Part shown: one piece after another, positions 13,897-42,074 of the stretch
Position numbering within the stretch: the first letter of the stretch is position 1
Layout: the number at the start of each line of letters is the position of its first letter
DNA from: a virus
Taxonomy: Duplodnaviria > Caudoviricetes
Length of the DNA: 57,082 nt
Reading direction: 5' to 3' (one strand)
IMG/VR virus record: IMGVR_UViG_3300025383_000031
Span: 1-57,082 of that record
Program-made: the position numbers and the translations under genes
The notes under the pieces: generated by a model
What the model saw: the letters and a program-made list of their open reading frames with translations, nothing else
Told to the model about the DNA's origin: nothing
Databases searched by the model: none

Positions 13897-14526
13897 TTAT
13901 TTATGGTATTTAAACACATATCCTTTAACTGTTTTTTGTCTACCAGCAAGACAATTTGCTATATCACCTTGTCTAATCCCTAAAATATTTGCGGCTTCAA
14001 CTTGATTTGTAAATGTCGCATTGGTTGTTGTTTCAAGAATCGCTGTTCTATTATTTGCTGGTTTATTAAACATTGGATGTTTATCACCTTTTAGGCTATC
14101 ACTTATTGCCTTGCGCCATTGTTCATTATACGAACCTCTTTTTTGTCCAAGCAAACTATTTCTAATTTTCTCTTTGGACTCTTCACTATGTTTTTTACCC
14201 TTCATAGTGCTTGGTTTTCCTTTATTACTTGGTGGTCTTGCGTCAATGCATATATTAGTAAGTTTATCATAGTTTTCTTTAATATAATCTTCTTCTAATT
14301 TATATGCTAAATTTTCATCTTCAATATTATTATGTAGGAATATAACACCTGGCTGCAATCCTTCTGCTTGTATTTTTTTTATTTTATTTGCAGTAGGGTT
14401 ATTTTCTCCGTTTCCACTCCAATGACCTATATGACTACGCCAACGATGGCCATTGCCTTTTCCACAATAGAATACTTCATCGTTGTTTCTTGGGTCAGTA
14501 AGAAGATATACATAGTATGTTTTCAT
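13897..14526 (-). mobile_element. Free-standing GIY-YIG homing endonuclease with NUMOD3 and C-terminal HTH
   Basis: YYVYLLTDPRNNDEVFYCGKG...R; KGKKHSEESKEKIR; FTNQVEAANILGI; start ATG 14526 after TATAAATA (14532-14539). Confidence 0.85.
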
Positions 14527-14563
14527 ACTATTATTTATACATATTCCAATATCTTGCTTTAAT

Positions 14564-15400
14564 TTACCACTTACGACAGGACCAATAACGAGCAGATGTG
14601 CGTGGACCTGGATTCTCACAATGGTGTCTAGCACGGAAACTCTTACGACGCTTTGGATTACTCTTCTTAATGCGCATTTTCTTATCGCCAAAATTAACTT
14701 TCTTAATATTGCCAGTTTTTGGGTCTTTAACAAACACTTTAAACTTCTTTACATCGCCACGCATTGGCTTGCTAAGTGGAACTTTACGACCATGATATTC
14801 TGCTTCATAAAGGTCATCCATAAAGAATCGAACTTCTTCATTGCCCTTGTATAAAACAACATCATCATCTTCTTCTTCGACATCCCATCCCATGTTATCA
14901 AGCATTTTTGCGGCTTGTGCATGTTGTTCTTGATTACCATTCCACCACATTTTTACTAATCGTTTTAATGTCTGCTGATTGTTTTGTAGTGAAACTACTT
15001 CGCCTTCTTCAATGCCTTCGCCGTAATCTTTACGGTCGTCATTTTCACTATAACCTTTTGTGTATGCTTCAATTTCATGTGGATCAGTTAATTTTTCGTG
15101 CTCATGACCGCCATGTTCGTTTGGCACGAGTTTATGTGGATTATGTCTGCGACCATAATATGAATCAGCACGACCACGATCATATGGCGAACCATGCTTG
15201 CTTTCTGTTTCATCAAGGCTTTCTAACACCTTAAATAATCTTTCGTCGCCAAGTATAGTAATACTATCACCGCTCATTTCCATGATTTCGGTATCAACTT
15301 CTAGCATGTTACCAAATTCTAGGTAAACACCATCACCAATCATTGGACGGTCTTCTGCTATGGCTGTAAGTTTTTCAATTAAAGAACGCATGTCACTCAT
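14564..15400 (-). CDS. Modular putative capsid-internal protein with basic C-terminal domain (SFRARH.C...ARYWSC)
   Basis: Leader MSDMRSLIEKLTAIAE; linkers SLDE, IEEGE, LYE; TAAATA at 15420-15425. Confidence 0.7.
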   Translation of the reverse strand: MSDMRSLIEKLTAIAEDRPMIGDGVYLEFGNMLEVDTEIMEMSGDSITILGDERLFKVLESLDETESKHGSPYDRGRADSYYGRRHNPHKLVPNEHGGHEHEKLTDPHEIEAYTKGYSENDDRKDYGEGIEEGEVVSLQNNQQTLKRLVKMWWNGNQEQHAQAAKMLDNMGWDVEEEDDDVVLYKGNEEVRFFMDDLYEAEYHGRKVPLSKPMRGDVKKFKVFVKDPKTGNIKKVNFGDKKMRIKKSNPKRRKSFRARHHCENPGPRTSARYWSCRKW

Positions 15401-16599: not shown

Positions 16600-17553
16600 T
16601 TATGACTTTGCTTTGGTGCTCACACGAATTGGTGCCTTGCCACTGCCGCCAGTATCTTTACCGCCACGACCTGCTGCGTTTTGTGCTTTGCGCTTACGAG
16701 TAACTGCACTCTTCTTTTGCGCAGCACTCATGCTACGTGCTTTTGCTGCTGGAACACATTTAGCATAACCACTCTTGCTACCACTGGTACCGCATGGGGG
16801 ATGCTTACCACCAACTTTCTTGCCAATATTAACCCACTTGTCCTTAAACCACTTATGAAGATTGCCGCTTGCTTCTGGTAGCACTAAATTACCACAGTGC
16901 ATGCAATAATCAACTTGTTCAAGTAGCACACTTTCTGTAATTGGGTCACAGCGCAGTTCTGTACTTTCTGTGGCCATTTCTGTTGCGATTTTTTTCTTAT
17001 ATACGTATAGTTTGTAACCTGAACTATCATCGTTAAAAATTTTATTCTGTTGAACTGGATCGGTTACAGCCTTAAAACCCATCTGCTCAAAGAATTTTGC
17101 TGCCCTATCATATAATTTAATTCTGCTTAATTCGTTTGATTTTGCGCCCATGACAATTACTTCGGCATTGGGATGTCTTGCAATAAAGTGATTTAAACAA
17201 TAGGCAACACCGTTAAATATTTTAAAAACAGTATCCTTTTCAGTTCCAGTTGCAGCATGGGTATCGGGTCTTGACTGTGTTTTATTTTCGAAAGCCAATA
17301 CATAATAATTTTCATTATATTCTTTAAATGTGACTTCAATTTTGGTTTTACCAACAGTGAAATCATAATCAGAACCGTAATTATCTGCATACACGTCAAA
17401 ATTTTCTGGCGCTTTATTTACATCAATAAATTCTTCAATTTCTTCGCTTTCGTTCTTGACGCAGTTTGGGTATGTCTTGCCAAACATCTTCTTGTTACCT
17501 TCTTTGTGGTAACCTTTCCAACATGCTTCACCAAGAACATCTTCCATCTTCAT
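16600..17553 (-). CDS. Modular putative capsid-internal protein
   Basis: Leader MKMEDVLGE; CWKGY...PNCV module; central SRIKLY domain; CxxC; Glu-free basic C-terminal domain. Confidence 0.7.
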   Translation of the reverse strand: MKMEDVLGEACWKGYHKEGNKKMFGKTYPNCVKNESEEIEEFIDVNKAPENFDVYADNYGSDYDFTVGKTKIEVTFKEYNENYYVLAFENKTQSRPDTHAATGTEKDTVFKIFNGVAYCLNHFIARHPNAEVIVMGAKSNELSRIKLYDRAAKFFEQMGFKAVTDPVQQNKIFNDDSSGYKLYVYKKKIATEMATESTELRCDPITESVLLEQVDYCMHCGNLVLPEASGNLHKWFKDKWVNIGKKVGGKHPPCGTSGSKSGYAKCVPAAKARSMSAAQKKSAVTRKRKAQNAAGRGGKDTGGSGKAPIRVSTKAKS

Positions 17554-17954
17554 TTGGATTTATTTCCCCAATTTTTAGCACCAGCCTTACGGCACTTAAC
17601 TAGCGCACCACTTGCGTAAGCACTTGGCCATACTTTGTAACGGCTCTTTACTTTATAATAGCAAGCATCCTTCTTTTCATCTACACGAGATTCTGGTAGC
17701 ATAAGTCCGCCACAATGCGGGCAACTTTCTTCTACATGGTCGTGTGCGGCACTGCCAACAATTTCATTATAATTGTCCATGCAAAGATAATCGTGGTGCT
17801 TGGATAATTTAATCATCTTTTCAGCAACATCATGCAAATCTTCATCGGTTTTTGCATCTTCACGAGCATATTCCATCATACGTAGCAGTAGCGGAATATC
17901 CATACTAACTGTATCGGTTTTGTCTGCTTCGCTTACAATCTGCCTAATACGCAT
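17550..17954 (-). CDS. Modular putative capsid-internal protein
   Basis: Leader MRIRQIVSE; DIPLLLRMMEYARED module; CPHC; basic C-terminal WPSAYASG module after VDE. Confidence 0.7.
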   Translation of the reverse strand: MRIRQIVSEADKTDTVSMDIPLLLRMMEYAREDAKTDEDLHDVAEKMIKLSKHHDYLCMDNYNEIVGSAAHDHVEESCPHCGGLMLPESRVDEKKDACYYKVKSRYKVWPSAYASGALVKCRKAGAKNWGNKSK

Positions 17955-19765
17955 TACTTTTTGCCTTTAGGTTTTTTACCACGTTTTTTCATATTAATAG
18001 CAATAGCTGCTTGCTGTGCAAGATTCTTTGCTTCATCTAACATACGCATGATATCACGACTGTTGTTACTTTCAGTTCCACTTGCCATATATTCGTGATC
18101 ATCAAAGTTTTCCATTTCTTTCTTTAATGCTGCACGTTCTTGTGCTGAAAGTGTGCCATATGCTTTCATAATGCTACGCACATCTCCTGATACAGGCGCT
18201 GCTGCTCCACCTGCTGCTCCACCTGTTGGTGCTGTAGTGGGCGCTGCCGCTCCACCTGCCGCTCCACCTGCTGCTCCACCTGCTGCTGGCGCTGTTGCTG
18301 GCGCTGTTGCTGTAGGAGCAGCTTGTTTTGGCGCACGGGACCCACGAGGGAATGGAATTTTCATATTCTTAAATGTAGTTTTAATTATTTCATCGCTAAC
18401 GCCTTGCTTGCGTAAAAAGTCAAGAACTACTGCACTATCAACGCTTTTAGATTGCCCGCTGTATGAAAAACCAGGACCGTTTTTCCATGCATTGTTTAGC
18501 TTGTCTGCAGTAACTTTATTGGCTAAATTGCTGCCAATCGTGCTTACTTTATTACCAATAGCACTACCAATATTTTTCAAGCCTTGAACAAAACCAGCTT
18601 CTTCAATTTGATGGAAAATTACAGGAACTGCGCTTTCAAATACCCACACGCTGCGAGCGCCATCATCAAGTACGCCTTCACGTAAGAACCAATCTTGCAT
18701 TGTAGCATCACGATCTACATATTGGCTGCTATTTGTAACTTTCTTAGCACCTGCGGCTGCTACTCGCTTTGCAGTATCTGATGCTGTACCAACACCACCT
18801 TGATAAATTGGATTACCCGTTGGCTTTGGAATTTTAAGTGTAGCGCCAGCACGAATTGCATCTGGGTTATTAGCATATTGTGGATTTGCATCAACTAAAT
18901 CTTTTACACTTACATTATATTGTTTAGCAATAGTGCTTAAATTAGAACCATTTGGCACCTTCATAGTAGTATAATCTTGCGGACCTAAATCAGTACCAGC
19001 ACGATATCCTTGAACACCTGATACATTATTTTGTGCTGCAGTTGTATCATACGGACCACCATCAGTACCAGCATGATATCCTTGAACTCCTGATACATTA
19101 TTTTGTGCTGCAGTTGTATCATACGGACCACCATCAGTACCAGCATGATATCCTTGCACCTTTGATGGGGCAGGAGCGGCACCTTTAAGATAACTTGCTA
19201 ATTCACGACCAAGACCAGCAGCACCAGCAGTAACACCGCCCTTAATCATAGCAGCACTTAGTTTATCGCCTTGTAGCAGACGATCTGTCATCTTCATAAG
19301 ACCCAACACTGCAATGGGAGCAGCACCACCAGTTGCTAAGCCAACGACTGCAACAAGTGCGCCATAGATTAGATTTTGAATAATTGGATGCTTTTTAGCA
19401 AGCGCACGATACGCATAAACATGCTTAGCAAGACCTTCGTCACCACCAGTAGCATCTTTTAGTTTTGCAGCCATACTATCAAAAGCATTATCAAATCCTT
19501 TAACTGGACCTAAATTTCCAATTTTAGAGATAATACCTTGATATGCATTATTTACAGCAGCGCCTGCTTTGCCAGCAACATCTACGCCTTTGCCAAGCGC
19601 AGTTCTGTTAGTGCCACTTGCTCTTGCGCCTTGCTCAATTGCACCAAAAAGCGCAGTAATCTGCTCTGGACTTAGTTTTGCTTCACTAATCGCACGACCG
19701 GCACTAGTCCAACTTTCCATTAGCGGATTAAAATCTGCTGCTTCAAATAACGCTGTTGTATTCAT
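17954..19765 (-). CDS. LysM-containing Ala/Gly-rich putative ejection protein
   Basis: LysM (VPNGSNLSTIAKQYNVSVKDLVDANP...IRAGATLKIP), hydrophobic segment, leader MNTTALFE. Confidence 0.75.
   Translation of the reverse strand: MNTTALFEAADFNPLMESWTSAGRAISEAKLSPEQITALFGAIEQGARASGTNRTALGKGVDVAGKAGAAVNNAYQGIISKIGNLGPVKGFDNAFDSMAAKLKDATGGDEGLAKHVYAYRALAKKHPIIQNLIYGALVAVVGLATGGAAPIAVLGLMKMTDRLLQGDKLSAAMIKGGVTAGAAGLGRELASYLKGAAPAPSKVQGYHAGTDGGPYDTTAAQNNVSGVQGYHAGTDGGPYDTTAAQNNVSGVQGYRAGTDLGPQDYTTMKVPNGSNLSTIAKQYNVSVKDLVDANPQYANNPDAIRAGATLKIPKPTGNPIYQGGVGTASDTAKRVAAAGAKKVTNSSQYVDRDATMQDWFLREGVLDDGARSVWVFESAVPVIFHQIEEAGFVQGLKNIGSAIGNKVSTIGSNLANKVTADKLNNAWKNGPGFSYSGQSKSVDSAVVLDFLRKQGVSDEIIKTTFKNMKIPFPRGSRAPKQAAPTATAPATAPAAGGAAGGAAGGAAAPTTAPTGGAAGGAAAPVSGDVRSIMKAYGTLSAQERAALKKEMENFDDHEYMASGTESNNSRDIMRMLDEAKNLAQQAAIAINMKKRGKKPKGKK
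18197..18312. repeat. 12-bp low-complexity coding repeat (GGAA/APAT linker)
   Basis: Repeated gctgctccacct / gctgttgctggc units. Confidence 0.7.
18989..19160. repeat. 72-bp coding tandem repeat, ~2.4 copies (QGYHAGTDGGPYDTTAAQNNVSGV)
   Basis: atcagtaccagc recurs at 18989, 19061 and 19133. Confidence 0.95.
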
Positions 19766-21326: not shown

Positions 21327-21884
21327 TCATGCTAATTCTCCCTGTTTAGCAAAACGCTTAAGTGTTTTGGCAACACGGGCGAAATCTCTATCATCATATT
21401 TGATACCAATACCACCAGCCATCTGCCATGCCGTTATGTTTTTACCATAGTCATCAACAAGAATGTTGGAAACGCCACGTTCATTGGTAGCAAACTGTGC
21501 TTTATTATGTGTTAATTCAATTCCGCTTGGCAACATGTCATTGAAATGCATATTAATCCAAGCACGTTTTCCACTTTCGCTGCGACTGTCGCCAGCCAGT
21601 GGAGTAGAACAAATATAATATTCACCAAATGTTTCTTTGACAGTGCGAACAAGTTCCCTTGCATGAGGAAGTAAGGGAAGGTCTACCCAAAATGTAGGAT
21701 GGTCTCGCACAAGTTGTAATTTGGCTTCTGGGTTATCAATATCTTTATAGTGGTCTTTGCCATCAAGCCTAGCCCACTCACCAAAGAAGTCAGCCAATAC
21801 GCCATCCATGTCTAGATAAACTTTGAACTCTGTTTTGACGACTTCATCTATACGCATGCGATTATTTATCCTGATTTTGACCAT
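21327..21884 (-). CDS. HAD-family 5'(3')-deoxyribonucleotidase (NT5C-like); alternative start at 21857
   Basis: YLDMDGVLADF, GKRAW, ILVDDY..N...W..AGG.GI. Confidence 0.88.
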   Translation of the reverse strand: MVKIRINNRMRIDEVVKTEFKVYLDMDGVLADFFGEWARLDGKDHYKDIDNPEAKLQLVRDHPTFWVDLPLLPHARELVRTVKETFGEYYICSTPLAGDSRSESGKRAWINMHFNDMLPSGIELTHNKAQFATNERGVSNILVDDYGKNITAWQMAGGIGIKYDDRDFARVAKTLKRFAKQGELA

Positions 21885-21920: not shown

Positions 21921-22085
21921 TTATCCAAAAGAATGGACACGGCGCTCAACTTTGGATACCCATGCCTTACTAGGCTTTCCATGACCTTTATAGTATTGTA
22001 GCGGCTTGCCAGTTGTTTTACTGACAAGCGCCCAACGACCTTTTACTTTTTTCAATGTTTCGGTTATAAACTCGTGTGCTCTCAT
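21921..22085 (-). CDS. Small basic putative capsid-internal protein (leader MRAHEFITE)
   Basis: Closest match to T4 MKTYQEFIAE; ATGA overlap with the upstream gene. Confidence 0.75.
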   Translation of the reverse strand: MRAHEFITETLKKVKGRWALVSKTTGKPLQYYKGHGKPSKAWVSKVERRVHSFG

Positions 22086-25000
22086 GATAGTTGCCCTACG
22101 CTCCAACCAGTTAGTCCAGCACCATTTGCTAGCGGTGTAAAATGGCGCACCGCATCTTGATAAGAATTAAAAGTTCCATTTTCTGATATCTGTCTACCTT
22201 GAACAAATAGCGCATACTCACCACGCCCACCAGGATTTGCAATTCTAGGTCTAGGTGCTGGTGTAAGTTCAGCAGCAGGTTGATTTACAATAGCCTCGCC
22301 TGGTCCCATATAGAATAATTCTTGTTCTTGGGTATCGGGATCAACAGCAAACATCTGAATACCATTAATGCCACCCAATGTGCCACCCCAACGCACCGAA
22401 CTGCTATTGCGTCGTTGAATATCATTAGCATGCTCTTTTGCTTGTTCTGGATCGTTGTAAGTAAATGAAGTAATGGTTTGTCCAGTATCTGTGTATTTTA
22501 ACAGATACTTTACAGCACGACCTGTAGCAGCACCAGAAGCAGTTGTATTTGATTGTGCCGCTTGTGGTGGCAGTGATGGCACACGGTCTTCGCCTCTACT
22601 AGTAATACGCATCATTTCATCACGCAAGTATTGTAGTGAATATTCATCTAATAGTAGAACACCAAAACGATCTGCTCGCAAACCACTTACGCCCCAATGT
22701 TTTTCAGCCGCAGGAGCAGCCATCTTTACTATTTCACTTTGATATGTTGAATACATTTCAACCTGTGGAATAAACACTATTGTTTTACTGTCCATTTCAT
22801 TTGGATTAGTAGAATAGTATTGAACACGAACCATACTGTAGCCAGGGTAACGCAGACTTACATCAGCAAGTGGCATCTGACGGTCATGGGCAAACTTCAC
22901 TGCTGCCTCAATCATATCATATGGAGCAGTGCCATTGATTTTTACTACTTGCTCGCCGTCTTCATTTTCCAAGAAACCATCAACTGGTCCGCTGCCTATC
23001 GGTGCAATAGGCTTACGACGCTCTTGGGCAGTGCGTAATTCTTTAACAAGTTGTTCTTTGTCAATAGCGCCAGCAGTGTATTTGGCAAACAATTGCATAG
23101 TATTGTCTTTTTCACCTATACCAGCACTTACAAACTTATACAGTTTCTTTTGATATTCTCTGCTTGCATCTTCAGTATCAGCAGCGGCACCTATGACACG
23201 AACATAACGCAACATAGTATTGCGAATTTTTTCATATTGTTCAAAATAGTTACCACCAGCACTGCGGAACTCAATATAATTTGGCTTGATATTCACGCTA
23301 ACATAACGGTCGCCACGAGGAACCAATAGTTTATTGATTTCTTTTTTGGCAATATCTTGCAATCCACCACGCATCTTATCAAGGATTGCTGGTACATTCT
23401 TTCGGGCATTTCTACCACGCACTTCACGCTTTGCTTGATCAAAACTACTCTTAGTCCATCGTGAACCAGCACGACCAAATGCTTTAAGCACATACTCATC
23501 ACCAAGCAACATGATTACTTTAAGATGGTCAATGTTTTCTAAGGTTTGATTAGGGATACTAACACCAATATGGAAACCTGTTGTGCGGTTTGTATAATAA
23601 TCATTGCTCTTTGCCCAATCAAATACATTCTCTAACGCAGCCAAGCCATCTTCTAGGTTCATTGGAGGTGATACAAGTTCAATACCACCATCGCCATCAT
23701 CATTTGGACTATCTAGCGAACTATCTGGTTCAAATATCCAAGTGCTTTCATCACGAGTTGCTCCGTGATATCCACTGCTTGCTCGTGCTTTATAACCAGT
23801 TGTGCGTCTAAAATCATCAACAACATCACCAATGTCTGTGGTTGGTTCTTCTCTACTTCTGCTATATGTATAATGCGGCCAAGTTAGCGATTCACGAGTA
23901 TTGCGATTTACCCAACGCATCCAATCATACATGTCATCAATGCTATTACGACTTAAGAATCTGCCCCAAGTATATTCTTCGTTTTCTTCCATCCAATTGG
24001 TGCGAACATTATCTTTGGCATCATCAAGTTCTCGCTCACTTGCCTCGTCCATAGGCGTATCGCCTAATTCTTCTTGAACTGCGTCTTTGTAATCATCAGT
24101 GCCTTCAAATTCATTATCATAGGTTTCATATTGGTATTCACTAAATGCTTCATAGAACGATTCTAATGCACTTTCAACATCACTGCGAGTATTGTAATCG
24201 CTAACAAAAAAATCCATAACATCACGCTGACGATCACGATATGAAGCCGTGCCAGGAAAATCCTCATTGGCATCCATATCCTCTTCTTCTTCCTCATCGC
24301 CTTCTTCACCGCCAAGACCAGGAATATACATTTCGGTTTCAAATCCAACCTTCATGCTCTTGGCAAATGGAGTATCAGCAAACTTTTCAAGAGATGTAGG
24401 ACTCATATTGATTTCGTTTAGGATACTTTCTTCAATACTTTCGTTACGAGGAGCAAGTTGAACTTCATAATCCTCATCACCAAGATGTTCATCTGACCAA
24501 GATTCAGCATAGCGTTCAGCACCACGAGGTGATGCTGCACGGAACTCGTGGACTACACCACCTCTGGCAATGATTTGGTATTTTACACCTTCCACAGCAG
24601 TAATGTTAGAAGATGTGGCTGTTGCATTTGCTGGAATAGCATTGCCCGTAATATCATAACCACGATCTATTTCTAACTGTGAATATTGGCGTGGTTGTTC
24701 TGGTTGTGCGGTTGGTTGAGGAATTACTTGACCTTGCGTATCCCATAGATTATTGTTGTTTGGTGATCTTATAGCAATACTTGCTAATGGTAGATTACGT
24801 TCTTGCGCAAATCTTTGGGCTGCTTGCGTTGCTGCGTAAAAACTTTGTGCTTGTGTTGCTAATAATTCTGTGCCATCGCTACGGTTTACAACAACATAGG
24901 TTGCTGCGCCACCACTGGGCAATTGTAGTGCTTGTGTACCAGCACCAGGTATTGGTGTATTTGAATCATCGTTTGCAAGGGATAAGAACCAATCGCTATC

Positions 25001-26908
25001 ACGATAACCATATTCACGCGTCAGACGAGCAGCAATGTCTCGTGCTTGCTCATTATCTGGCGCACGAAACTGTGTAACCGCCTGCTGATTGTTTGATCTG
25101 CGGATAACATACATAGGTTGAATAGATGATACAGTTCGATCACCGCCAATTGATAATGGTTGGCGTGTTAGAATATCATCTGCTTGACCATCACGATCAC
25201 GAGTATCTCTTAACGCTACTAGGTCAAATGAACGACCACTTGCTCGCACTATGCGTGTGGCAATATCATATACATCACTGTAAGTCATTCTTGGAGATAC
25301 TACAAATGATTGCCATGGGTTGCCAGTTATACGACTGATAATCTGAAATGTAATACCACCAATCCCATCGTAATCTACATACGGTGTATCATCATCGTCA
25401 CCACCACCAACATTTGGTTGCGGTGCTTTTGCTTTCTTGGCAAAATCACGCTTGCTTTGTGCTGTTTTAACATAACTTATAAGTGCTGCGCGAGGCATAT
25501 TACCTGTTGCAAATGCTGTGAAATACTTGATAGTATCGGTTTCATCTTTTTTATCAGCAGTAAGCAGTTTGGCAAATTTCTTTTGGTATTCTTGGCGTTC
25601 TGCTTCTGGGTCAAGGGCAATGTTCATAGCATATACAACACGTAACAGTGTGTTTACTACTTCATCAGTATCCATATCAAGCCAGTTACCGCCTGGTGAA
25701 CGAAACTCTACACGATTATCTTTTGTATTGATACTTGTAAACTTGTCAGTATAACCACTGTGAATAAGTTTGGATGCTACTAGATTTAAATTCTGACGCA
25801 TCGCATCAACGGCTTTATTAGCCTTTTCTGGATTTTGTTTAATGAATGAGGCAATCTGTTCAAACGCACTACGAGCGTATGAATTACCAAGACGACCAAA
25901 CTTTTCAAGAATATACTTGTCGCCTAAAAATAGTGCAAGTTTAACATAATCAAGTTTATCTAACTTATAACCTGGTATAGAGATGTTCATATGCAAACCA
26001 GTTTTATCATTGGTATAAGCATTGCCATCTTTTGCCCACGCCTTGACCTTATTGATTTGGTCAATCATAGTTGTGATATCAAGTGGTGGTGATACAAACT
26101 CTAAACCTTCGCCACCTTTGCCACGAGTAGGTTGTAGACTGCTATCTGGTTCAATAACATACGCATCGTTTGGCTTTGCTATGCCGTGATAACTGCCGCT
26201 CTTAATAGTCTTCATACCAACAGCACGACGGAAATCACCTACATCAACAGTAGAGCGAGTTCTGCGGTCATAATAATCAGGTTCAGTCCAGTTTGGCCAA
26301 GATAGCCCAAGACTGCTATTATTTGCCAAATTACTCATATATGCGCCACCATAGTTGTCTTCTAAAAATTGTTCAAGATAGTCGTCAATGTTATCGTCAT
26401 CTTCAAGATTATCTACCCAAGTTTGGAAATATCGTGATTTAAACTCTTCATATGGATCAATCGTATCAATTTCTTTAAATAGTTCTGCTTGATTAGCATA
26501 ATCACGACCATAACGTTGGTCAATAAAATCTTGAATACGGGCGCTAGTATAATTATCCCATAGCGGACCTTCAATATAATCGTTCCATGCGTCATGGATC
26601 AAAGCAGTTGCAAAGTTTACTTCACGACGACTATTGTGGTCGCCAACGAAGAACTGCGTAACATCTTGTACTAATGCACTAAAACTTGCGGTAGAAACAC
26701 GCTCATCTTGGTCATAGTCTGGTTCGCTATCAAAGTCTTCATATGGATCATAATCATCATCTTCCTCTTCTTCAAGATTAGTGACGATAAGTTCAAATTC
26801 AAGACCTGCCTTGGCATTGGGAATCTTTGCCACTGCCGCACGAAGGGCTGACGGACTCATATTCACTTCATTTAGGATTTCTTCAAGGATTAGGTCTTTG
26901 TCGCTCAT
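22082..26908 (-). CDS. 1608-aa protein with two tandem amidoligase (COOH-NH2 ligase) domains plus short repeats
   Basis: Twice: G[LF]E.E, EPDSSL, G.E.VSPP, TG.H...S, EFRS.GG; both copies start ILNE-[VI]NMSP; TAAATA at 26914-26919. Confidence 0.85.
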   Translation of the reverse strand: MSDKDLILEEILNEVNMSPSALRAAVAKIPNAKAGLEFELIVTNLEEEEDDDYDPYEDFDSEPDYDQDERVSTASFSALVQDVTQFFVGDHNSRREVNFATALIHDAWNDYIEGPLWDNYTSARIQDFIDQRYGRDYANQAELFKEIDTIDPYEEFKSRYFQTWVDNLEDDDNIDDYLEQFLEDNYGGAYMSNLANNSSLGLSWPNWTEPDYYDRRTRSTVDVGDFRRAVGMKTIKSGSYHGIAKPNDAYVIEPDSSLQPTRGKGGEGLEFVSPPLDITTMIDQINKVKAWAKDGNAYTNDKTGLHMNISIPGYKLDKLDYVKLALFLGDKYILEKFGRLGNSYARSAFEQIASFIKQNPEKANKAVDAMRQNLNLVASKLIHSGYTDKFTSINTKDNRVEFRSPGGNWLDMDTDEVVNTLLRVVYAMNIALDPEAERQEYQKKFAKLLTADKKDETDTIKYFTAFATGNMPRAALISYVKTAQSKRDFAKKAKAPQPNVGGGDDDDTPYVDYDGIGGITFQIISRITGNPWQSFVVSPRMTYSDVYDIATRIVRASGRSFDLVALRDTRDRDGQADDILTRQPLSIGGDRTVSSIQPMYVIRRSNNQQAVTQFRAPDNEQARDIAARLTREYGYRDSDWFLSLANDDSNTPIPGAGTQALQLPSGGAATYVVVNRSDGTELLATQAQSFYAATQAAQRFAQERNLPLASIAIRSPNNNNLWDTQGQVIPQPTAQPEQPRQYSQLEIDRGYDITGNAIPANATATSSNITAVEGVKYQIIARGGVVHEFRAASPRGAERYAESWSDEHLGDEDYEVQLAPRNESIEESILNEINMSPTSLEKFADTPFAKSMKVGFETEMYIPGLGGEEGDEEEEEDMDANEDFPGTASYRDRQRDVMDFFVSDYNTRSDVESALESFYEAFSEYQYETYDNEFEGTDDYKDAVQEELGDTPMDEASERELDDAKDNVRTNWMEENEEYTWGRFLSRNSIDDMYDWMRWVNRNTRESLTWPHYTYSRSREEPTTDIGDVVDDFRRTTGYKARASSGYHGATRDESTWIFEPDSSLDSPNDDGDGGIELVSPPMNLEDGLAALENVFDWAKSNDYYTNRTTGFHIGVSIPNQTLENIDHLKVIMLLGDEYVLKAFGRAGSRWTKSSFDQAKREVRGRNARKNVPAILDKMRGGLQDIAKKEINKLLVPRGDRYVSVNIKPNYIEFRSAGGNYFEQYEKIRNTMLRYVRVIGAAADTEDASREYQKKLYKFVSAGIGEKDNTMQLFAKYTAGAIDKEQLVKELRTAQERRKPIAPIGSGPVDGFLENEDGEQVVKINGTAPYDMIEAAVKFAHDRQMPLADVSLRYPGYSMVRVQYYSTNPNEMDSKTIVFIPQVEMYSTYQSEIVKMAAPAAEKHWGVSGLRADRFGVLLLDEYSLQYLRDEMMRITSRGEDRVPSLPPQAAQSNTTASGAATGRAVKYLLKYTDTGQTITSFTYNDPEQAKEHANDIQRRNSSSVRWGGTLGGINGIQMFAVDPDTQEQELFYMGPGEAIVNQPAAELTPAPRPRIANPGGRGEYALFVQGRQISENGTFNSYQDAVRHFTPLANGAGLTGWSVGQLS

Positions 26909-26925
26909 TTATATATTTACCGTTT

Positions 26926-29900
26926 TTAAGGTTTGCGTTGTTTATTCAAATACTGTACTTTTGCGCCATTTTCATCTGGTTCAACCTCACGATCCCAAGG
27001 AAATGTGGCTACCTGACGGTCAGGATAATCATTGCCGCCACCAACAGTTCCTATGATAGAACCAGCGTGTTCATTTTGTTGCGGTCCAAATTTCTTTATA
27101 AACTTTGCTTTGTCTTTTGGCATTTCGTAGTCTAATGAAATTTGGTTATCAATTCTGCCTCGCTCATCAACTATTATATCAACTGCAATATGCTTAAATC
27201 CAAGTGCAGTTTGTGCATATACACGATACATCTTTTTAAGGTCAGGCAAGAAACCTTGAACAAAAAACGAAACGGTTGCTTTTGCAAAACGCACATATCC
27301 AAGTTTAAATGCTTCTTCATATCCATCAATGTCTTTACTATAAAGCCATCCCAGATGTTCTTCCTTCGTAACATATTCAACTTTGCGATTAGGCAAAATC
27401 CAACCATGTGTTTCATTCGGGTCAAGTGCTTCTTCAATGCTTTCACTTTGTTGTGCTTCTGCATCCCACTTCTTGTGTAAGAATGTTAGCAAACCTTTTA
27501 CATCGCTAGCACCGATTTTGCGCATTGCTGCAATAATTTTAGTTGCTGCTTCATAACCACTGTTGCCTGGCTTACGAGCATTGGTAATTTCATTACGTAA
27601 CCCAAGGTCATCAGCAAACTGACCACCGCTCCAATAGGTTAAACTATAACGCAGTTTATTTGCTTCTTTGGATAACTCACTGCGTTTCTTCTTAAAGATA
27701 AGTTCTAACCAAGGAGCAAGATATTTCTTACCATTAAAGGTGCTTATATAACCAGTCTTCTTTTGACCACGAATTAAATCTTGGGCTTTGCTTACTGGTA
27801 TTGCTCGTTTGGTGTCCTGTAACTTCCACGCATTTTCATTGCTATAAAGATAAGTTGGTAAGCCACGCTTCTTTGCTACAATCATTAACTGACGAGTAGT
27901 TGGGCTTGCAAATTCACCTGCTTCTTTAAGCAAAATATGAACGGCTGTAATAGCATCTGCTGGTATTGTTGGCTCACGTGAGAATACACGGTCTTCGCTT
28001 TCACTGTGCTTTTGCTTATCAAATCCTGCCCAATAGTCAATTGCTTTAACTGGATAACGACGATTAAACCAATTGCCATCAAGATTAAACATAACAGCAG
28101 TGCCGCCAGTAAATTCGTGATAACCGCCTACTTTGCTGCGAGTGGTAGATAAGAAATAGTTATAACCTTTTGGCGCATACTGATCTTCTACACTACCAGT
28201 AGAAATGCTCAACATAAACTCATTGTTTTTAAGAATGTTTAATGCTGCCCCTACACTGCCTGTATAGTGGAACAGCACTGGTGATGCTGCTTCGTCAATT
28301 TGTGATTCTGCTACTAATTCATTCTTTGTGATAGATTTCATAATCGGTAGATAGCGTGGTTGAACTTTTTCCATATCTTCACGATGTATGTCAAGATGAC
28401 CTTTGCGAATAAGTTCTGCGTGATACATAAAATCACCAAAACCATCTTCTTCTTGTGAAATATGTTGATTGGCATAGTCTTCAAGTTCTTGTGCTATTGC
28501 CAACATGTTGCTATTTGGTTCAATAGTTTCATCTAAATCTTTACGATGACTGCGCTTGTAATATGAACACCAACCATTTGGCGCAATCTTACCACTAACA
28601 GCCGAACAACCATGAGGAGGACGCCACATAGTGCAATGATCACAACGTTGACCATTGCGAGGCATATCCTGGTACTTTGCTACGGCTTTGGTTGATTTTT
28701 CTGCTGCTTCATCTAAATTTTCATTTGCCAAGTCAGGAGCAACCATATAACTGTTCTTGGAACCTGGTGGAAATTCAAAACGTTCCATGCCTTTCTCACG
28801 AGCAGCGGCACGAGCCTTCTTGAACATTAGCGTCCACCAGCGGCGATTAGCATAATCTTTATTGCCCATATAGGCTTTTGGATCAGTAATGCGCAACTCT
28901 GCCCATTGGTCAGGAGTTAGGTCTTCATCTAATTCATACTTTGGCAAACCATATAAATCAAGGTCTGTGCCGTGTGTAGAACCATAATCGGTATCGTCCT
29001 TATTAGGTTCATATGGTTTGCGACCACGTTTTACAAGTTTAGGATTATCGCCCCAATCGCCACCAATGCCTGGTGCTTCGGTAACAATGCCCATTGCCTT
29101 TAACATAGCACGAGCAACTACACGGTCTTTTTCTTTTTCTACTTCTGGCAACTGTGCATAAGTTTGTTGGGCAAGAGCATAACGTTTCTTTTTCTTGTCG
29201 GGAATAGTTGGAGTATCTAACTGCAACTTGCCCATATAATCAGCCACGGCAGTTTTATTCCAACCATCGTGGATAGCATTAGCAATTGCTTCTACATCTG
29301 TAATGCCACTATCAATCATACGCTTTGCAGCAGTGGCACTTTCAATGTTTGCCAACCAACCAAAGTTATTGGTAGGTGTAGATAAACCATAGTGATAAGC
29401 ATCATCAAGTGCTTTATCACTTATGTGTGCAAGTTGTTCTACTGATAGGCTTTCACGGATAATGCTTTCACTGATAATACTTTCTTCAACTGTCTCACTT
29501 AGTCCCATGCCACTACGAACTGCTTGGAATAGTGTTTTACCATCTACCATAATATTTTGTGGCACACGGGTAGCACGTTCAAATGCTTCTGGGTCACCAA
29601 TCTTCGCTGCTTCACGAGCATTTGTAGCACTCGTTAAGCGAGGGCTTTCCATAAAGGATAACGGTTCAAACTGATAGAAACCGTGTGCTACTTGCTTGCC
29701 GTTGTATTGTTCCAATACTGGTCGCATTGATGCCATATCGTCTTCACCAGCCACGAAAGTGGCACTACGGAAGCCTTTGTCATAAAGATATGCGGCTGCT
29801 TGTAAGAATGTTTTAATTGAGGGGTCTTCAACGAGATGTCCTTGTGTTTGTGGATAAAGTGTTTTTACCCATTTTACTTTTTGATCATAGGTAAGAGGAT

Positions 29901-30078
29901 TCTTTTTAGTATCTTGACTTTTACTAAGGAATAATGCCCAACTGCCTTTCTTTGCCACGCTGGCAAGAGTATTAATTAACCCTTCGTGTCCAAAGTGCGG
30001 AGGGTTCATACGTCCAAATGCAAATGAAATATGCGGATTTGGTGCTTCGTTAAAAATGGTGCGATGGCTTAAGGTCAT
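26926..30078 (-). CDS. 1050-aa multidomain protein: HxGH nucleotidyltransferase, RyR-like, HiPIP, ART-like and unknown domains
   Basis: FGRMNPPHFGH; AIHDGW...YAQLPEVEKEKDR; YQ..P..GQRCDHC...C..V.G.IAPNGWC; FHYT...STTRS...ESEDR. Confidence 0.85.
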   Translation of the reverse strand: MTLSHRTIFNEAPNPHISFAFGRMNPPHFGHEGLINTLASVAKKGSWALFLSKSQDTKKNPLTYDQKVKWVKTLYPQTQGHLVEDPSIKTFLQAAAYLYDKGFRSATFVAGEDDMASMRPVLEQYNGKQVAHGFYQFEPLSFMESPRLTSATNAREAAKIGDPEAFERATRVPQNIMVDGKTLFQAVRSGMGLSETVEESIISESIIRESLSVEQLAHISDKALDDAYHYGLSTPTNNFGWLANIESATAAKRMIDSGITDVEAIANAIHDGWNKTAVADYMGKLQLDTPTIPDKKKKRYALAQQTYAQLPEVEKEKDRVVARAMLKAMGIVTEAPGIGGDWGDNPKLVKRGRKPYEPNKDDTDYGSTHGTDLDLYGLPKYELDEDLTPDQWAELRITDPKAYMGNKDYANRRWWTLMFKKARAAAREKGMERFEFPPGSKNSYMVAPDLANENLDEAAEKSTKAVAKYQDMPRNGQRCDHCTMWRPPHGCSAVSGKIAPNGWCSYYKRSHRKDLDETIEPNSNMLAIAQELEDYANQHISQEEDGFGDFMYHAELIRKGHLDIHREDMEKVQPRYLPIMKSITKNELVAESQIDEAASPVLFHYTGSVGAALNILKNNEFMLSISTGSVEDQYAPKGYNYFLSTTRSKVGGYHEFTGGTAVMFNLDGNWFNRRYPVKAIDYWAGFDKQKHSESEDRVFSREPTIPADAITAVHILLKEAGEFASPTTRQLMIVAKKRGLPTYLYSNENAWKLQDTKRAIPVSKAQDLIRGQKKTGYISTFNGKKYLAPWLELIFKKKRSELSKEANKLRYSLTYWSGGQFADDLGLRNEITNARKPGNSGYEAATKIIAAMRKIGASDVKGLLTFLHKKWDAEAQQSESIEEALDPNETHGWILPNRKVEYVTKEEHLGWLYSKDIDGYEEAFKLGYVRFAKATVSFFVQGFLPDLKKMYRVYAQTALGFKHIAVDIIVDERGRIDNQISLDYEMPKDKAKFIKKFGPQQNEHAGSIIGTVGGGNDYPDRQVATFPWDREVEPDENGAKVQYLNKQRKP

Positions 30079-30121: not shown

Positions 30122-31249
30122 TTAATTTGGTGTCCAGCGATGACGAGGCACAAGTTTAATATTAGGTTCGCCATAATTAACATAACCTTCGCCACCTTTT
30201 TGACCTTTGGTAGTTTGTTGAATATCGCCACCTTCACTATCTAATTGGTCAATAATTTGATTCTTAACCGTGCGAAGATTTTCTAATACCGCAAATGTAG
30301 CAATAAATCCTCGTTGATTTTGCGCAATCCAGTCTTGAATTTTTTGTTGCATTGGCGCAGATTGCCTGCTACTGCTAGTTAGCCAAGTTATAAATTCACT
30401 TGCAAGGTCATTTGTTCTGCCAACCCTTGCCATCTGATTGTTAAAGTTATAAAGAACGCCTTTAAATCCTGCCATTTTCATAGCAGCAAGGCGTTCATCA
30501 TTTAAAAAATTATCAATAGCAACTTTATTTGCAGCAACATATTTCTGTAAGTCTTGTAATTTTTTTGTATCAATTTTAACGGGTTGCTGTGCATATTTTG
30601 GACCCAACACAATTAAACCTTGTGTTTTATTAAATGGCGTAAAATCATCAATAGGTTGCTGTTGATCATCGCCCATACCAAACTGTGGAAAGTATGCATG
30701 TCCTACAACTGCTGCGGTTGCTTTTGATATACGTTGGCCAAGTTCAGTTGATTGTGGTACGCTATAGGTAACATTGTTTGGTGTAAATGTGTATGCATTA
30801 TTTTCTAATTGGGGACGACGCATAAACAATAAATCACCATACACATAACCACGAAAATCTTGTGGAGTTGCTGCTTCAAACAGCGCCCATAGACTAGCAT
30901 ACTCATTAGCAAAACGCATACGTTCATCTTCTTTATCGGGCGTAACATTGCCAGTACTCATGATAAATTTAACAAGTTCTGCTGGACTTTGACTTTTTCC
31001 GCTGCTATCGGGTTTTAACCAACCATTGTGTCCAACCATGATAAATTTACCATTTGGCTCACGTCCCCAATATACTTGAGGTTTGCCATCCCATTTCCAA
31101 CGCACGGTTTGTGGATTGCTTGCGAGAGCGGAAAGACGAGAAATGGCAGTAGATGCACCATCACTGCCATTTATCAATACCAAATCTTCTACGTGCTGAA
31201 ATGCACGTCCTACTTTTGGTGCCTCGTTTACTATCTGATTTATGAACAT
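30122..31249 (-). CDS. Ligase-fold (KxDG) covalent nucleotidyltransferase-like protein, leader MFINQIVNE
   Basis: KWDG, YGDLLF, GEGYV, IKLV in the order of ligase motifs I, III, IV, V; TATAAATA at 31254-31261. Confidence 0.65.
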   Translation of the reverse strand: MFINQIVNEAPKVGRAFQHVEDLVLINGSDGASTAISRLSALASNPQTVRWKWDGKPQVYWGREPNGKFIMVGHNGWLKPDSSGKSQSPAELVKFIMSTGNVTPDKEDERMRFANEYASLWALFEAATPQDFRGYVYGDLLFMRRPQLENNAYTFTPNNVTYSVPQSTELGQRISKATAAVVGHAYFPQFGMGDDQQQPIDDFTPFNKTQGLIVLGPKYAQQPVKIDTKKLQDLQKYVAANKVAIDNFLNDERLAAMKMAGFKGVLYNFNNQMARVGRTNDLASEFITWLTSSSRQSAPMQQKIQDWIAQNQRGFIATFAVLENLRTVKNQIIDQLDSEGGDIQQTTKGQKGGEGYVNYGEPNIKLVPRHRWTPN

Positions 31250-31256
31250 CAAATAT

Positions 31257-33549: not shown

Positions 33550-34248
33550 TTACGCTTTCACTTTCTTTACTAATTTATAGACTTTTTTGATACCATCTTG
33601 AAACAACATATACAGTAGCGGAATATTGTCTGCACTTCTGCAATAAACACGAACTGTGCCATAGTAATAACCTGTTTCAAAACCTGTGGCAGTACGAGTA
33701 CACCAGCGATTTAGTTCGTATGGAAATGACAAGTCATCTTTGTTGTTATTAACAAACTCATACAACTCAAGTAGATTTTCTCGCTGTGTTTTTCTGCCAC
33801 CATAGCCACCTGTTTGCCAACCCCAATAAGTTTCAAACTCAACCTGATAAGGAATATCTGGGTCATACCTTGTTTCACTTACCAGTTTAACATCAACTGC
33901 GATATTGTCAAGGTTTTTAATTTCAGAAATATACTGATTATTGCTTGTGGTAAATCCTTTGACTGATGCAAGCAATGATGGATCAGCAAGAATTGCATCA
34001 AGCGCAGTGGTGCTATTCGTAAAGAAACGCAAAAATGATTCTTTACGAAGACGACAGTATGGATCAAGCTTTTTTAAGACATTTCGCATATTTCCAAAAA
34101 TATTCCAATCTCTTGGAATTGCTAGTTCTACACGAAAATGATACTTTCCATACCATAGTTTGTTTTCGGTACTAATATGCCATTTAAACAAATGGTCTTT
34201 AAACCGATCACGGTATTCAATCAGCGTTAATTCTGCTATCTCTGTCAT
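33550..34248 (-). CDS. Hypothetical protein
   Basis: 232-aa ORF overlapping the clpA stop. Confidence 0.7.
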   Translation of the reverse strand: MTEIAELTLIEYRDRFKDHLFKWHISTENKLWYGKYHFRVELAIPRDWNIFGNMRNVLKKLDPYCRLRKESFLRFFTNSTTALDAILADPSLLASVKGFTTSNNQYISEIKNLDNIAVDVKLVSETRYDPDIPYQVEFETYWGWQTGGYGGRKTQRENLLELYEFVNNNKDDLSFPYELNRWCTRTATGFETGYYYGTVRVYCRSADNIPLLYMLFQDGIKKVYKLVKKVKA

Positions 34249-36451
34249 CTTCTGCCACCAATTCTAACTTGTCACCATTTAGGTCCACCTTAATATTAGC
34301 ATAGTTTCCTGTCTTGTCAAACAGTATTTTCTTTGCTAACGGAACTTTAATGTGTTCATGGATAGTGCGTTGCATTGGTCTGGCACCAAGACTTGGAGTA
34401 TATCCTTTCTTGCATAACCAATCCCATGCAGCATCAGTAAGTGAAACAGATGTATTCTTTAGGGCAAGTTGCTCATTAAGGTCACGAATAAACTTCTCTG
34501 CAACCTTGCGAATTGTAGCGTTATCAAGTTTGTTAAATGTAACAATCGCATCCACTCGATTGCGGAACTCTGGGCGGAAGAACTCCTTAACCGCAGCATC
34601 AACTGCATCCACATTTGTACCGCCACCAAAGCCAATAATGTTACGTTCGCTATCAGCAGCACCCAAATTACTAGTCATAATAAGGATAGACTGGCGGCAA
34701 TCTGCTCGTTTGCCATTGGTGCCAGTGATGAAACCTTCGTCCATAACTTGCAACAGCACCTGTGAAACATCAGGATGTGCCTTTTCAATCTCGTCAAAGA
34801 GAATGATAGAATGTGGATTCTTGGCAATCTCACTAATAAGCAACCCACCAGCAAGGTTAGCATCTTCATAGCCAACATAGCCAGGAGGCGCACCAATAAG
34901 GCGTGAGATAGAATGACGTTCTTGATACTCACTCATATCAAAGCGCAGCAACTTCATACTTAAACGATCTGCCAATTGCTTGGCAAGTTCTGTTTTACCT
35001 GTACCAGTAGGTCCAAGGAACAAGAATGAGCCAACAGGCTTGTTATCAGCCTTTAGACCAGCCTGTGATACCCACACACGGTCAAGGACTTTATCAACTG
35101 CCGTATCTTGATTATACACAACTGCTTTAATCTCAGCGCCAATGTTAGGCATAATCTTTTGTGTATTTTCAGCGCCTAACTGTGCTTCTGGAATTCCAGT
35201 AATGCGAGAAAGTTCGCGACGAATCTGCGCCACATCAATGGTGCGTGAGCCACGTGCTTTTGTACGGCGCAATGCTGCAGCACTGTCAATAAGATCAATT
35301 GCTTTATCTGGAAGTTTCTTATCTGCTTGATAACGAGCAGATAGTTCTACTGCCTCACTAATTGCTTCATCGGTAATTTTTACACCATGAAAAGTTTCAT
35401 AGTTTTCTTTAATACCAAGCAGAATAGTTTTACAATCCGCAATACTTGGTTCATCTACAGCAACACGATTGAAACGACGCATAAGCGCACGATCTTTTTC
35501 AAACTGCTGAGTATATTCTTCCCAAGTAGTTGCAGCAATAACCTTAAAATCACCACGAGCAAGTGCTGGTTTTAACATATTAGAAAAATCTACACTGCTA
35601 TTACTGCCACTGCCAGCACCACGCATCTGATGCGCTTCGTCGATGAATAAAATAATGTTACCAAGTTCGGTAGCTGCTGTGATAATTTCTTGAAGCTTCT
35701 CTTCAAAATCACCACGATACTTTGTACCGGCAAGCAGCGAACCAATGTTTAAACTATAAACTTCATGGTCTTTTAGGAATTTTGGTACGTCGTTATTGAC
35801 GATATTATATGCAAGACCTTCTGCAATAGCAGTTTTACCAACGCCAGCGTCACCTACTAGTAACACATTGCATTTGTTCTTGCGAGCAAGAATCTGCGTC
35901 ATATCAGCAATTTCAGTAGTGCGACCAATTACCGCTTCAATCTTGCCATTGCGTACCATCTCATTTAAATTAGTACAATGTTCATCTAGCGCATTGTTTG
36001 CTAGGTTAATATTTTTCTTGTTCTTGCTCTTATTATAAGTTTCAATAACCTTTTCAGGTTCAACGCCATATTTTTTTAGATAAAAAGCAGCATGACTATG
36101 TGATTCTTTTGTAATTGAAAGATAAAGATCACTGATATGAATAGTTTGGCGACCAAGTAAAATTACTTGTGTAAAAGCACGATTGAATACTCGCTCAAGA
36201 CTTTGTGTCTTTTTCGGCTCATCATCTATATTACTTTGTGGATAGTTTTCGAAGATATAATCTTCAATTTCTTTGGCTAGATTCTCTACATCTACACCCA
36301 TTGTCTGTAATACTTGCATAAAACTTTTTTCATGTAGCATAGAATATAGTAAATGTTCAACTGTAAAGTATTGATGATGGTTTTCAGCAGCAAATTGCTT
36401 GGCTACCTTAACAATTTTTTCAAGATCGTTGTTGCTATTAAATTGGGTCAT
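34217..36451 (-). CDS. clpA: ATP-dependent Clp protease ATP-binding subunit ClpA
   Basis: Clp N domain (TVEHLL), two AAA+ modules (GDAGVGKT, GPTGTGKT), KYRGDFEE and GYVG pore loops, IGF ClpP-docking loop. Confidence 0.95.
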   Translation of the reverse strand: MTQFNSNNDLEKIVKVAKQFAAENHHQYFTVEHLLYSMLHEKSFMQVLQTMGVDVENLAKEIEDYIFENYPQSNIDDEPKKTQSLERVFNRAFTQVILLGRQTIHISDLYLSITKESHSHAAFYLKKYGVEPEKVIETYNKSKNKKNINLANNALDEHCTNLNEMVRNGKIEAVIGRTTEIADMTQILARKNKCNVLLVGDAGVGKTAIAEGLAYNIVNNDVPKFLKDHEVYSLNIGSLLAGTKYRGDFEEKLQEIITAATELGNIILFIDEAHQMRGAGSGSNSSVDFSNMLKPALARGDFKVIAATTWEEYTQQFEKDRALMRRFNRVAVDEPSIADCKTILLGIKENYETFHGVKITDEAISEAVELSARYQADKKLPDKAIDLIDSAAALRRTKARGSRTIDVAQIRRELSRITGIPEAQLGAENTQKIMPNIGAEIKAVVYNQDTAVDKVLDRVWVSQAGLKADNKPVGSFLFLGPTGTGKTELAKQLADRLSMKLLRFDMSEYQERHSISRLIGAPPGYVGYEDANLAGGLLISEIAKNPHSIILFDEIEKAHPDVSQVLLQVMDEGFITGTNGKRADCRQSILIMTSNLGAADSERNIIGFGGGTNVDAVDAAVKEFFRPEFRNRVDAIVTFNKLDNATIRKVAEKFIRDLNEQLALKNTSVSLTDAAWDWLCKKGYTPSLGARPMQRTIHEHIKVPLAKKILFDKTGNYANIKVDLNGDKLELVAEDDRDSRINAD

Positions 36452-41742: not shown

Positions 41743-42074
41743 TTATTAGGACGACTTAATATCTTTAATAATTGCCAATTATTATAAGCTTCTTCAACGG
41801 ATGGGTTTTCATGAGTCATATCTTTTACCCAACTGGTTTCTTTGACCCATCCGTTGATTTTATTTTCATATGAAGCAACCATCCATGCTTCTACTAGGTA
41901 TTGTTCATACCAAGTGTCATTTCCATTATCATCTTTTTGCAATCCAAAAAACGCATTGCCATCCATAATAGCAATTGTTTCTGCAATAGGACGCAACATG
42001 CGTTTTTCTTGGGCAGTAAATTTCTTTTTGCGTGTTTTCTTATACGTGTTATATATATGACTAAGAATTTCCAT
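41739..42074 (-). CDS. Hypothetical protein
   Basis: 111-aa ORF converging on phoH. Confidence 0.6.
   Translation of the reverse strand: MEILSHIYNTYKKTRKKKFTAQEKRMLRPIAETIAIMDGNAFFGLQKDDNGNDTWYEQYLVEAWMVASYENKINGWVKETSWVKDMTHENPSVEEAYNNWQLLKILSRPNN

Follow-up and report, generated by a model that had tools for sequence, protein, structure and literature searches.

A candidate head-targeted cargo polyprotein with hydrophobic-x-Glu joints in an uncultured T4-related giant phage

The DNA analyzed here is a 57,082-base contig of an uncultured virus (IMG/VR record IMGVR_UViG_3300025383_000031), referred to as the window. CheckV scored it as 17% complete, and a genome of about 330 kb is therefore expected. 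An open reading frame (ORF) on the minus strand at 26926-30078 is open over 1050 amino acids (aa) and encodes a protein of about 118 kDa, P0001. P0001 is probably a late, head-targeted cargo polyprotein that would enter the prohead by its N-terminal leader, be cut by a protease at each joint between modules, and have its modules kept as cargo. Packaging, cleavage, retention, and injection of these modules are inferred. The sequences and models show a modular anatomy, the placement and conservation of one short motif, hydrophobic-x-Glu, exchange of cassettes at this motif, leaders on standalone module copies that resemble the T4 capsid-targeting sequence, and, in a relative, a protease together with motif-rich substrates.

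In the proposed mechanism, the 11-residue leader would act like a T4 capsid-targeting sequence (CTS), by which the entire chain of 118 kDa would reach the prohead's scaffolding core. Cleavage of the leader and of every inter-module joint would follow, carried out by a prohead protease of the gp21 type, whose cuts fall after the Glu of hydrophobic-x-Glu. About nine proteins would be freed, namely an NMNAT-like nucleotidyltransferase, a helical RyR-like module, two small cassettes, a mini-HiPIP, a helical cassette, an enzyme of the ADP-ribosyltransferase (ART) fold, a "GWI" domain, and a tail peptide. The freed modules would stay with the DNA and probably be delivered to the host. The joints would double as standard connectors, with Glu always being the point at which modules are gained, dropped, or exchanged, are broken up into separate genes with their own leaders, or are joined by fusion.

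The source phage is a giant (jumbo), T4-related phage with a capsid protein nearest to the PA5oct/RaK2-like group. The window holds T4-type replication genes (Table 1), and the P0001 gene adjoins replication genes, not head genes. No near-identical phage DNA was present in the phage collection. The P0001 reading frame is open in translation table 11, and full-length copies at 96% identity were found on other contigs. A catalogue search returned 74 related proteins of 577-1835 aa, and a scan of IMG/VR returned 25 loci.

Motif placement at the joints

The initial annotation described this ORF as unrelated domains separated by hydrophobic-x-Glu linkers and cut inside the prohead into roughly eight proteins. 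All of the motifs that it listed were present at the places named: IFNE (residues 8-11), HFGH (28-31), LSETVEESIISESIIRES (193-210), IVTE (331-334), LDE (383-385), NENLDE (452-457), LDE (515-517), AESQIDE (590-596), SESIEE (878-883), HGWILP (891-896), and QNE (1001-1003). Its number of proteins was about right, with nine pieces of 48 aa or more counted, plus small peptides, and P0001 holds at least five distinct folds. Two of the sites depart from the strict motif, namely the leader and the tail junction, where the residue two positions before Glu (P3) is Phe and Gln, respectively.

The motif was above chance in P0001 by position, not by count. There were 16 [LIVM]xE sites compared to 14.4 expected. 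Five of the 16 fell within the 41 residues of three short linkers of low confidence in the AlphaFold2 (AF2) model (196-209, 580-598, and 875-882), compared to 0.62 expected (P = 2e-4). When a one-residue margin was allowed, 7 of the 16 were in or beside 47 linker residues (P = 2e-6). Module interiors were poor in the motif (6 sites compared to 12.0 in composition-preserving shuffles, P = 0.02), whereas four control motifs were not depleted there (12 compared to 12.1 for the reversed motif; [LIVM]xD, [LIVM]xK, and [LIVM]xQ at or above expectation). The five interior sites outside the module at 518-596 were located in blocks with a mean predicted local distance difference test (pLDDT) score of 61-86, in or beside modelled helices or strands. 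Wherever AF2 was informative, the motifs fell either within linkers of low confidence or at the margins of confidently modelled folds, in agreement with the annotation's expectation for independent domains and disordered linkers.

Junctions in the relatives were counted with 12 module-start anchors by taking every distinct upstream context in 77 proteins and scoring the nearest Glu. Glu was just upstream in 122 of 123 distinct contexts, and 98 had the strict motif [LIVM]xE (background, 1.6% per residue). The other 24 mostly had the strict motif a few residues further upstream, and the true exceptions preceded the tail (QNE), ParB (L-A-N-E), and, in one context, RyR (T-Y-E). P3 was Ile in 36, Leu in 33, and Val in 25 (94 contexts), P2 varied freely, and the first residue after Glu (P1') was Ala in 34, Ser in 20, and Gly in 13. 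The junction motif equals the T4 gp21 motif, given as L/I-X-E in the accessible text of the source (PMC9026906). Codons at P3 and P2 varied (CTT, CTG, TTA, ATT; GAC, GAT, GGC) while the hydrophobic P3 and the Glu at P1 persisted, and the constraint therefore acts on the peptide. An all-against-all count of breakpoints in high-scoring segment pairs (HSPs) was noisy, with 255 of 725 clusters within 4 residues of a motif compared to 95.6 expected. This count was set aside for the anchor-based one because linkers that resemble one another lengthen the HSPs and the rows are related to each other.

Module order varied widely among the relatives. Labelled with 13 anchors of our own, the 23 proteins P0001-P0023 fell into 20 distinct arrangements of modules. 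Cassettes such as ParB and amidoligase were gained, lost, or replaced, and these changes took place at Glu motifs, as the annotation had proposed for orthologs. Seventeen Pfam families were found across 44 relatives, ART and ParB among them.

The ART module served as an independent family. It had 1282 representative clusters at E<=0.001, and the sample consisted of the best 147 new representatives, of which 144 were evaluable. In 101 of these, the module was N-terminal, behind a short leader that ended in [LIVMF]xE at the module start. Leaders were most often 9 aa (48 cases), followed by 8 aa (20 cases), and the 9-mers had the consensus M-[RK]-x-x-[ED]-[IFL]-[LI]-x-E. For comparison, T4 IPIII and IPII start with MKTYQEFIAE/A (here and below, the slash follows the final Glu). 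The module was internal with the same motif ahead of it in 38 of the 144, and 5 were without the motif; in total, 139 of 144 representatives had [LIVMF]xE at the module start. A 550-aa relative, P0081, has a whole Met-leader, M-R-A-N-E-F-I-S-E, at residues ~266-274, directly ahead of its ART module. Judged by its sequence, this internal leader looks like a fossil of two leader-tagged genes fusing.

The ART module alone shows the pattern in 139 of 144 representative clusters, and a wider reading can be considered. Across T4-related phages, hydrophobic-x-Glu joints could form a common code by which capsid cargo is plugged in, with internal linkers being internalised capsid-targeting leaders and any module being able to switch between standalone, leader-tagged and polyprotein forms by simple fusion or fission. 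One protease and one three-residue rule would then mature the shell, clear the scaffold, and unpack an evolvable library of effectors. We consider this generalization to be evenly balanced between right and wrong.

Prohead protease, known systems, and alternative readings

A related contig, G001, carries a relative of P0001 at 88% identity and encodes a 208-aa Peptidase_S77 (T4 gp21) protein (E 2e-27, 91.9 bits). Its gene is part of a gp20-to-gp23-like cluster with the T4 gene order, beside the genes for Gp23 (E 3e-98) and a scaffold-like protein. The scaffold (L026 250-1347, minus strand) has 27 [LIVM]xE sites compared to 11.1 in shuffled sequences, and 0 of 3000 shuffles reached 27; the reversed motif occurred 11 times compared to 11.2. 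Four of the 5 sites in the capsid protein (L027 1459-2658, minus strand) are in residues 1-42 and one is in the remaining 357. The protease itself has LIE-7, and T4 gp21 has LIE-9. The capsid protein and its PA5oct counterpart share 68% identity. As far as these sequences indicate, the pattern in the scaffold and the capsid propeptide is the substrate pattern known for gp21. The cognate prohead protease that the initial annotation had invoked is thus supported indirectly, by a gp21-family gene and motif-bearing substrates in a related contig.

The leader can be compared with the T4 CTS, which is 10-19 residues long; it is removed by the gp21 prohead protease, the first 10 residues of IPIII suffice for head incorporation, and positions 8 and 10 are required for processing, which Asp at position 10 blocks (PMC9026906). 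The P0001 leader fits this range in length. Leaders of its relatives still end in x-x-E, and the more distant ones read ..D-I-L-T-E. The annotation's single packaging tag is consistent with the IPIII rule and with the leaders on standalone ART copies.

P0001 partly resembles the T4 internal proteins IPI, IPII, and IPIII and T4 Alt in having a short N-terminal leader ending in hydrophobic-x-Glu and a gp21-family protease in its lineage. Its cargo includes an ART-fold enzyme, as Alt is, and the 9-aa leader of the standalone ART relatives shares the pattern E-[FI]-[IL]-x-E with IPIII. However, T4's internal proteins and its Alt are described in the accessible text of the sources as single modules with terminal propeptides (PMC5694885, PMC3012670), one or two in number, whereas P0001 has about nine unrelated modules, a motif that recurs at every internal joint, and a leader with Phe at P3.

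Polyvalent proteins, known from phages and conjugative elements, likewise place many unrelated effector domains on one polypeptide, and P0001 falls within their range of 2-15 domains. Iyer et al. (2017) proposed that such proteins are delivered at invasion and released as units, and drew the analogy with RNA-virus polyproteins (PMC5512222). In the text available to us, release was proposed to occur through an embedded zincin-like MPTase domain (PMC5512222), and ARTs are noted to be common in polyvalent proteins (PMC9503650). Pfam (E<=0.1) and PHROGs (E<=0.01) gave no embedded peptidase in P0001, in searches that used no dedicated MPTase profile. The joints of P0001 instead match a prohead protease acting in trans, and the accessible text of PMC5512222 has no mention of prohead-protease sites between domains.

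The phages phiKZ, 201phi2-1, and SPN3US also have Glu-specific prohead proteases related to gp21 (gp175/gp245), which cut at S/A-x-E in many head and ejection proteins. According to the parts of the sources at hand, phiKZ-type cut sites are stacked redundantly (PMC9026906, PMC10052503), and 13 of 14 sites in SPN3US remove N-terminal propeptides (PMC10052503). In contrast to P0001, in which each piece is a folded, independently occurring module, the cuts in these phages discard degraded propeptides and leave one mature product. Full-text searches that covered few subscription journals gave no paper in which enzyme modules are linked through sites for a prohead protease.

Should cleavage be confirmed, a true polyprotein strategy would be common to tailed phages and RNA viruses, driven in the phages by the protease that matures the head. 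A single short tag plus a three-residue joint would suffice for loading and releasing many enzymes in equal numbers, and this would account for the way in which giant phages put together, and rapidly reshuffle, their injected sets for host takeover and counter-defence. The candidate set here comprises NAD-related nucleotidyltransferase, ART-fold enzyme, iron-sulfur carrier, amidoligase, ParB, and nucleotidase modules. The reading would also supply a rule by which virion cargo could be predicted from metagenomic sequences, and would widen the T4 packaging tool to take chains instead of single fusions.

Several observations weigh against P0001 being cleaved head cargo. Its cleavage and packaging are predicted from the sequence and models of an uncultured phage. 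None of the corresponding protease and capsid genes were found in the 57-kb window (17% of the genome), and Peptidase_S77 was present in 1 of the 2 related records searched, being absent from G002, a 26%-complete fragment. The total number of motifs in P0001 is not raised. The 123 junction contexts, drawn from sequences that are related, do not represent independent events, and ParB junctions in the relatives read L-A-N-E. The leader has the length and the final Glu expected, but its P3 is Phe rather than Leu or Ile, and the tail junction has Gln at P3. AF2 was uninformative at 333-521, where pLDDT was low even across a genuine HiPIP, so the boundaries at 385, 457, and 517 were placed by comparison alone. 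The T4 late-promoter octamer TATAAATA had 4 matches compared to 8.2 expected, none convincingly placed, and was uninformative. In PA5oct, the closest cultured phage, the nucleotidyltransferase homolog is standalone with no Glu-ended leader; the GenBank notes flag its neighbors, but not this protein, as found by virion mass spectrometry.

PA5oct was also considered as a proteomic proxy and rejected, as it offers only this leaderless standalone protein with no virion flag. Nothing on cleavage was found in the accessible text of the phAPEC6 paper.

One alternative is that P0001 is an uncleaved polyvalent protein. The chain would work whole, packaged or not, and the joints would be acidic, flexible stretches that came along with the modules. 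According to the available text of PMC5512222, phages have polyvalent proteins of 2-15 domains, some of which, the N4 virion RNA polymerase for example, are packaged without being processed; the motif count at expectation also agrees with this possibility. However, neither an invariant Glu (122 of 123 contexts) nor a hydrophobic residue two positions earlier is required for a linker to be flexible, and the motif would not have to be depleted inside modules. The same motif closes the 9-aa leaders of standalone modules and marks the scaffold and the capsid propeptide of a relative. We therefore regard an uncleaved chain as unlikely.

Alternatively, P0001 could be cleaved at its joints without being capsid cargo. 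A phage protease acting outside proheads, or another phage or host protease, would process it in the cytoplasm into equimolar intracellular enzymes. The PA5oct homolog, the position of the gene beside replication genes, and a large ATP-dependent protease homolog encoded in the window (phrog_4871, E 3e-248) are in favor of such processing, but it is quite improbable for several reasons. The leaders resemble the T4 CTS in length and pattern, the T4 internal-protein genes are likewise distant from the head genes, and Pfam gave no peptidase domain within P0001 at E<=0.1. In addition, AAA+ proteases are not site-specific endopeptidases.

A further alternative is that the joints are recombination scars, with conserved linker DNA serving as microhomology when cassettes are shuffled and the peptide motif arising as a side effect. 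The likeness of the linkers (ESIEE, ESVEE, ESIISE) and the rampant shuffling are in favor of it. The P3 and P2 codons, however, differ with residue classes kept, and P2 varies freely, and we regard this alternative as very improbable. Linkers that are cut sites may also ease recombination.

Modules of P0001 and neighboring genes

The coordinates of the modules and of neighboring features are listed in Table 1. Four domain labels of the initial annotation were examined against databases and models. Three of them, the HxGH nucleotidyltransferase, the HiPIP, and the ART-like domain, were borne out, and support for the fourth, the RyR-like domain, was weak.

Residues 12-195 matched a PHROG cytidyltransferase (E 4e-35), had an AF2 pLDDT of 70-87, and returned NadM, NadD, and PPAT in Foldseek (prob 1.0, E about 2e-3); the Pfam score was 17.1 bits, under the cut-off of 21. 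With HFGH at 28-31 and a Rossmann-like fold, the assignment to the HxGH nucleotidyltransferases (NMNAT/NadD/PPAT-like) is supported. Homologs stand alone in T4-like cyanophages. This was the sole module returned by Foldseek with the full-length P0001 model. The stacked-site linker that follows varies in length and sequence among the relatives, yet always ends in [LIVM]xE ahead of SLSVEQ, and a cluster of HSP breakpoints was located at 209 (n = 40).

The next module, residues 210-334, scored 16.7 bits with Pfam RyR (PF02026) compared to a gathering cut-off of 27.4 (E 0.0085). An RyR match at E<=0.001 was found in 1 of 44 relatives, and the atlas score of 0.78 is a lead only. The likeness to RyR is therefore weak. 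This module has 29 different upstream contexts in the relatives, 26 of them with strict [LIVM]xE. The two small cassettes after it were present or absent independently of their neighbors in the relatives, with [LIVM]xE in 7 of 7 upstream contexts for residues 335-385 and 6 of 6 for residues 386-457.

The HiPIP module contains the only cysteines of P0001 (Cys 479, 482, 491, and 504). Residues 460-508 matched residues 3-51 of the 54 in PioC (6xyv; E 1.4e-7) with all four Cys aligned. The Pfam score was 20.4 bits, just below the cut-off of 22, and 15 of 44 relatives matched at E<=0.001. Cys spacing and similarity over the whole protein thus support the prediction of a HiPIP at 458-517. Strict [LIVM]xE was found in 11 of 12 of its upstream contexts. 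The helical cassette at 518-596 was absent or replaced in several relatives.

The best PDB matches of the ART module in Foldseek were DarT (E 3e-4) and Tpt1/KptA (prob 0.98-1.0, TM 0.3-0.6), which are ART-superfamily enzymes acting on nucleic acids. S644, R647, E693, E695, and R697 were invariant in 54 sequences, an E-x-E included, and a His was near-invariant. The modelled fold and these catalytic-type positions support placement of residues 597-883 in the ADP-ribosyltransferase superfamily. No usable atlas match and no known relative were found for the GWI domain, which is missing from many relatives of P0001. The conserved tail was retained in nearly all architectures, either last or immediately ahead of an amidoligase module, and is possibly a second targeting or anchoring element.

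Table 1. Features of P0001 and of the window, with residues of P0001 where applicable
Feature	Residues	Coordinates	Strand	Remarks
Leader MTLSHRTIFNE	1-11	30046-30078	-	Predicted capsid-targeting propeptide, cut after Glu11; pLDDT <50 at 1-12
HxGH nucleotidyltransferase (NMN/NaMN adenylyltransferase-like)	12-195	29494-30045	-	Ends LSE-195
Stacked-site linker	196-209	29452-29493	-	VEE-199, ISE-204, IRE-209; pLDDT <50 throughout
Helical module, weakly RyR-like	210-334	29077-29451	-	Ends VTE-334; AF2 helices 213-328
Short cassette APGIGG..YELDE	335-385	28924-29076	-	Unresolved by AF2
Small cassette DLTPDQW..NENLDE	386-457	28708-28923	-	Low AF2 confidence
Predicted complete mini-HiPIP ([4Fe-4S] carrier)	458-517	28528-28707	-	Ends LDE-517
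Helical cassette	518-596	28291-28527	-	Ends VAE-591/IDE-596; AF2 helices 523-583; pLDDT <50 at 580-598
ADP-ribosyltransferase-fold (ART) module	597-883	27430-28290	-	Ends IEE-883; AF2 pLDDT 92.7
GWI alpha/beta domain	884-1003	27070-27429	-	Ends QNE-1003; AF2 pLDDT 78-87 at 883-1000
Conserved tail HAGSIIGTVGGG..FPWD	1004-1050	26929-27069	-	47 residues; pLDDT <50, unresolved by AF2
Downstream ORF, two amidoligase modules		22082-26908	-	1608 aa; Pfam Amidoligase_2 E 3.7e-12, 2 stretches
Upstream DUF6267 ORF		30122-31252	-	376 aa; leader ..QIVNE/AP; Pfam DUF6267 E 2.8e-28
Leader-bearing ORFs		12616-12969, 16600-17553, 17550-17954, 17954-19765, 21327-21884, 30122-31252	-	
Exonuclease		2550-3551		T4-type replication gene
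DNA polymerase		9303-11966		T4-type replication gene
Clamp loader		42061-42996		T4-type replication gene

The genes on either side of P0001 also have leaders. In the 1608-aa ORF, each amidoligase module lies behind ..ILNE/[VI]NMSP, and the second is preceded by NESIEESILNE/INMSP, a near copy of the N-terminal leader ..DLILEEILNE/VNMSP. Relatives have an amidoligase module fused to the polyprotein tail via LDE/VNMSP, and DUF6267 is fused to the nucleotidyltransferase in some (P0064, P0069).

Between 12.6 and 31.3 kb, six more ORFs begin with leaders of 8-14 residues ending in hydrophobic-x-Glu (MRIREITE/A, MKMEDVLGE/A, MRIRQIVSE/A, MNTTALFE/A, ..RMRIDE/V, and ..QIVNE/A). The 603-aa ORF among them has a transglycosylase-like domain, and an NT5C nucleotidase and the module at 16600 occur inside polyproteins of relatives. 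From their leaders, these six ORFs look like an island of head-cargo genes, with the loose leader pattern also matching the clamp loader by chance.

Distant relatives P0027 and P0028 have an H-E-x-x-H module between the nucleotidyltransferase and the amidoligase, which could be, from this motif, a zincin-type peptidase as embedded in polyvalent proteins. The ATP-dependent (AAA+) protease homolog of the window is a 744-aa ORF at 34217-36451 on the minus strand. An ORF resembling homing endonucleases (phrog_314, E 9e-20) was found at 13897-14733, also on the minus strand, and overlaps the ORF at 14564-15400 by about 170 bases.

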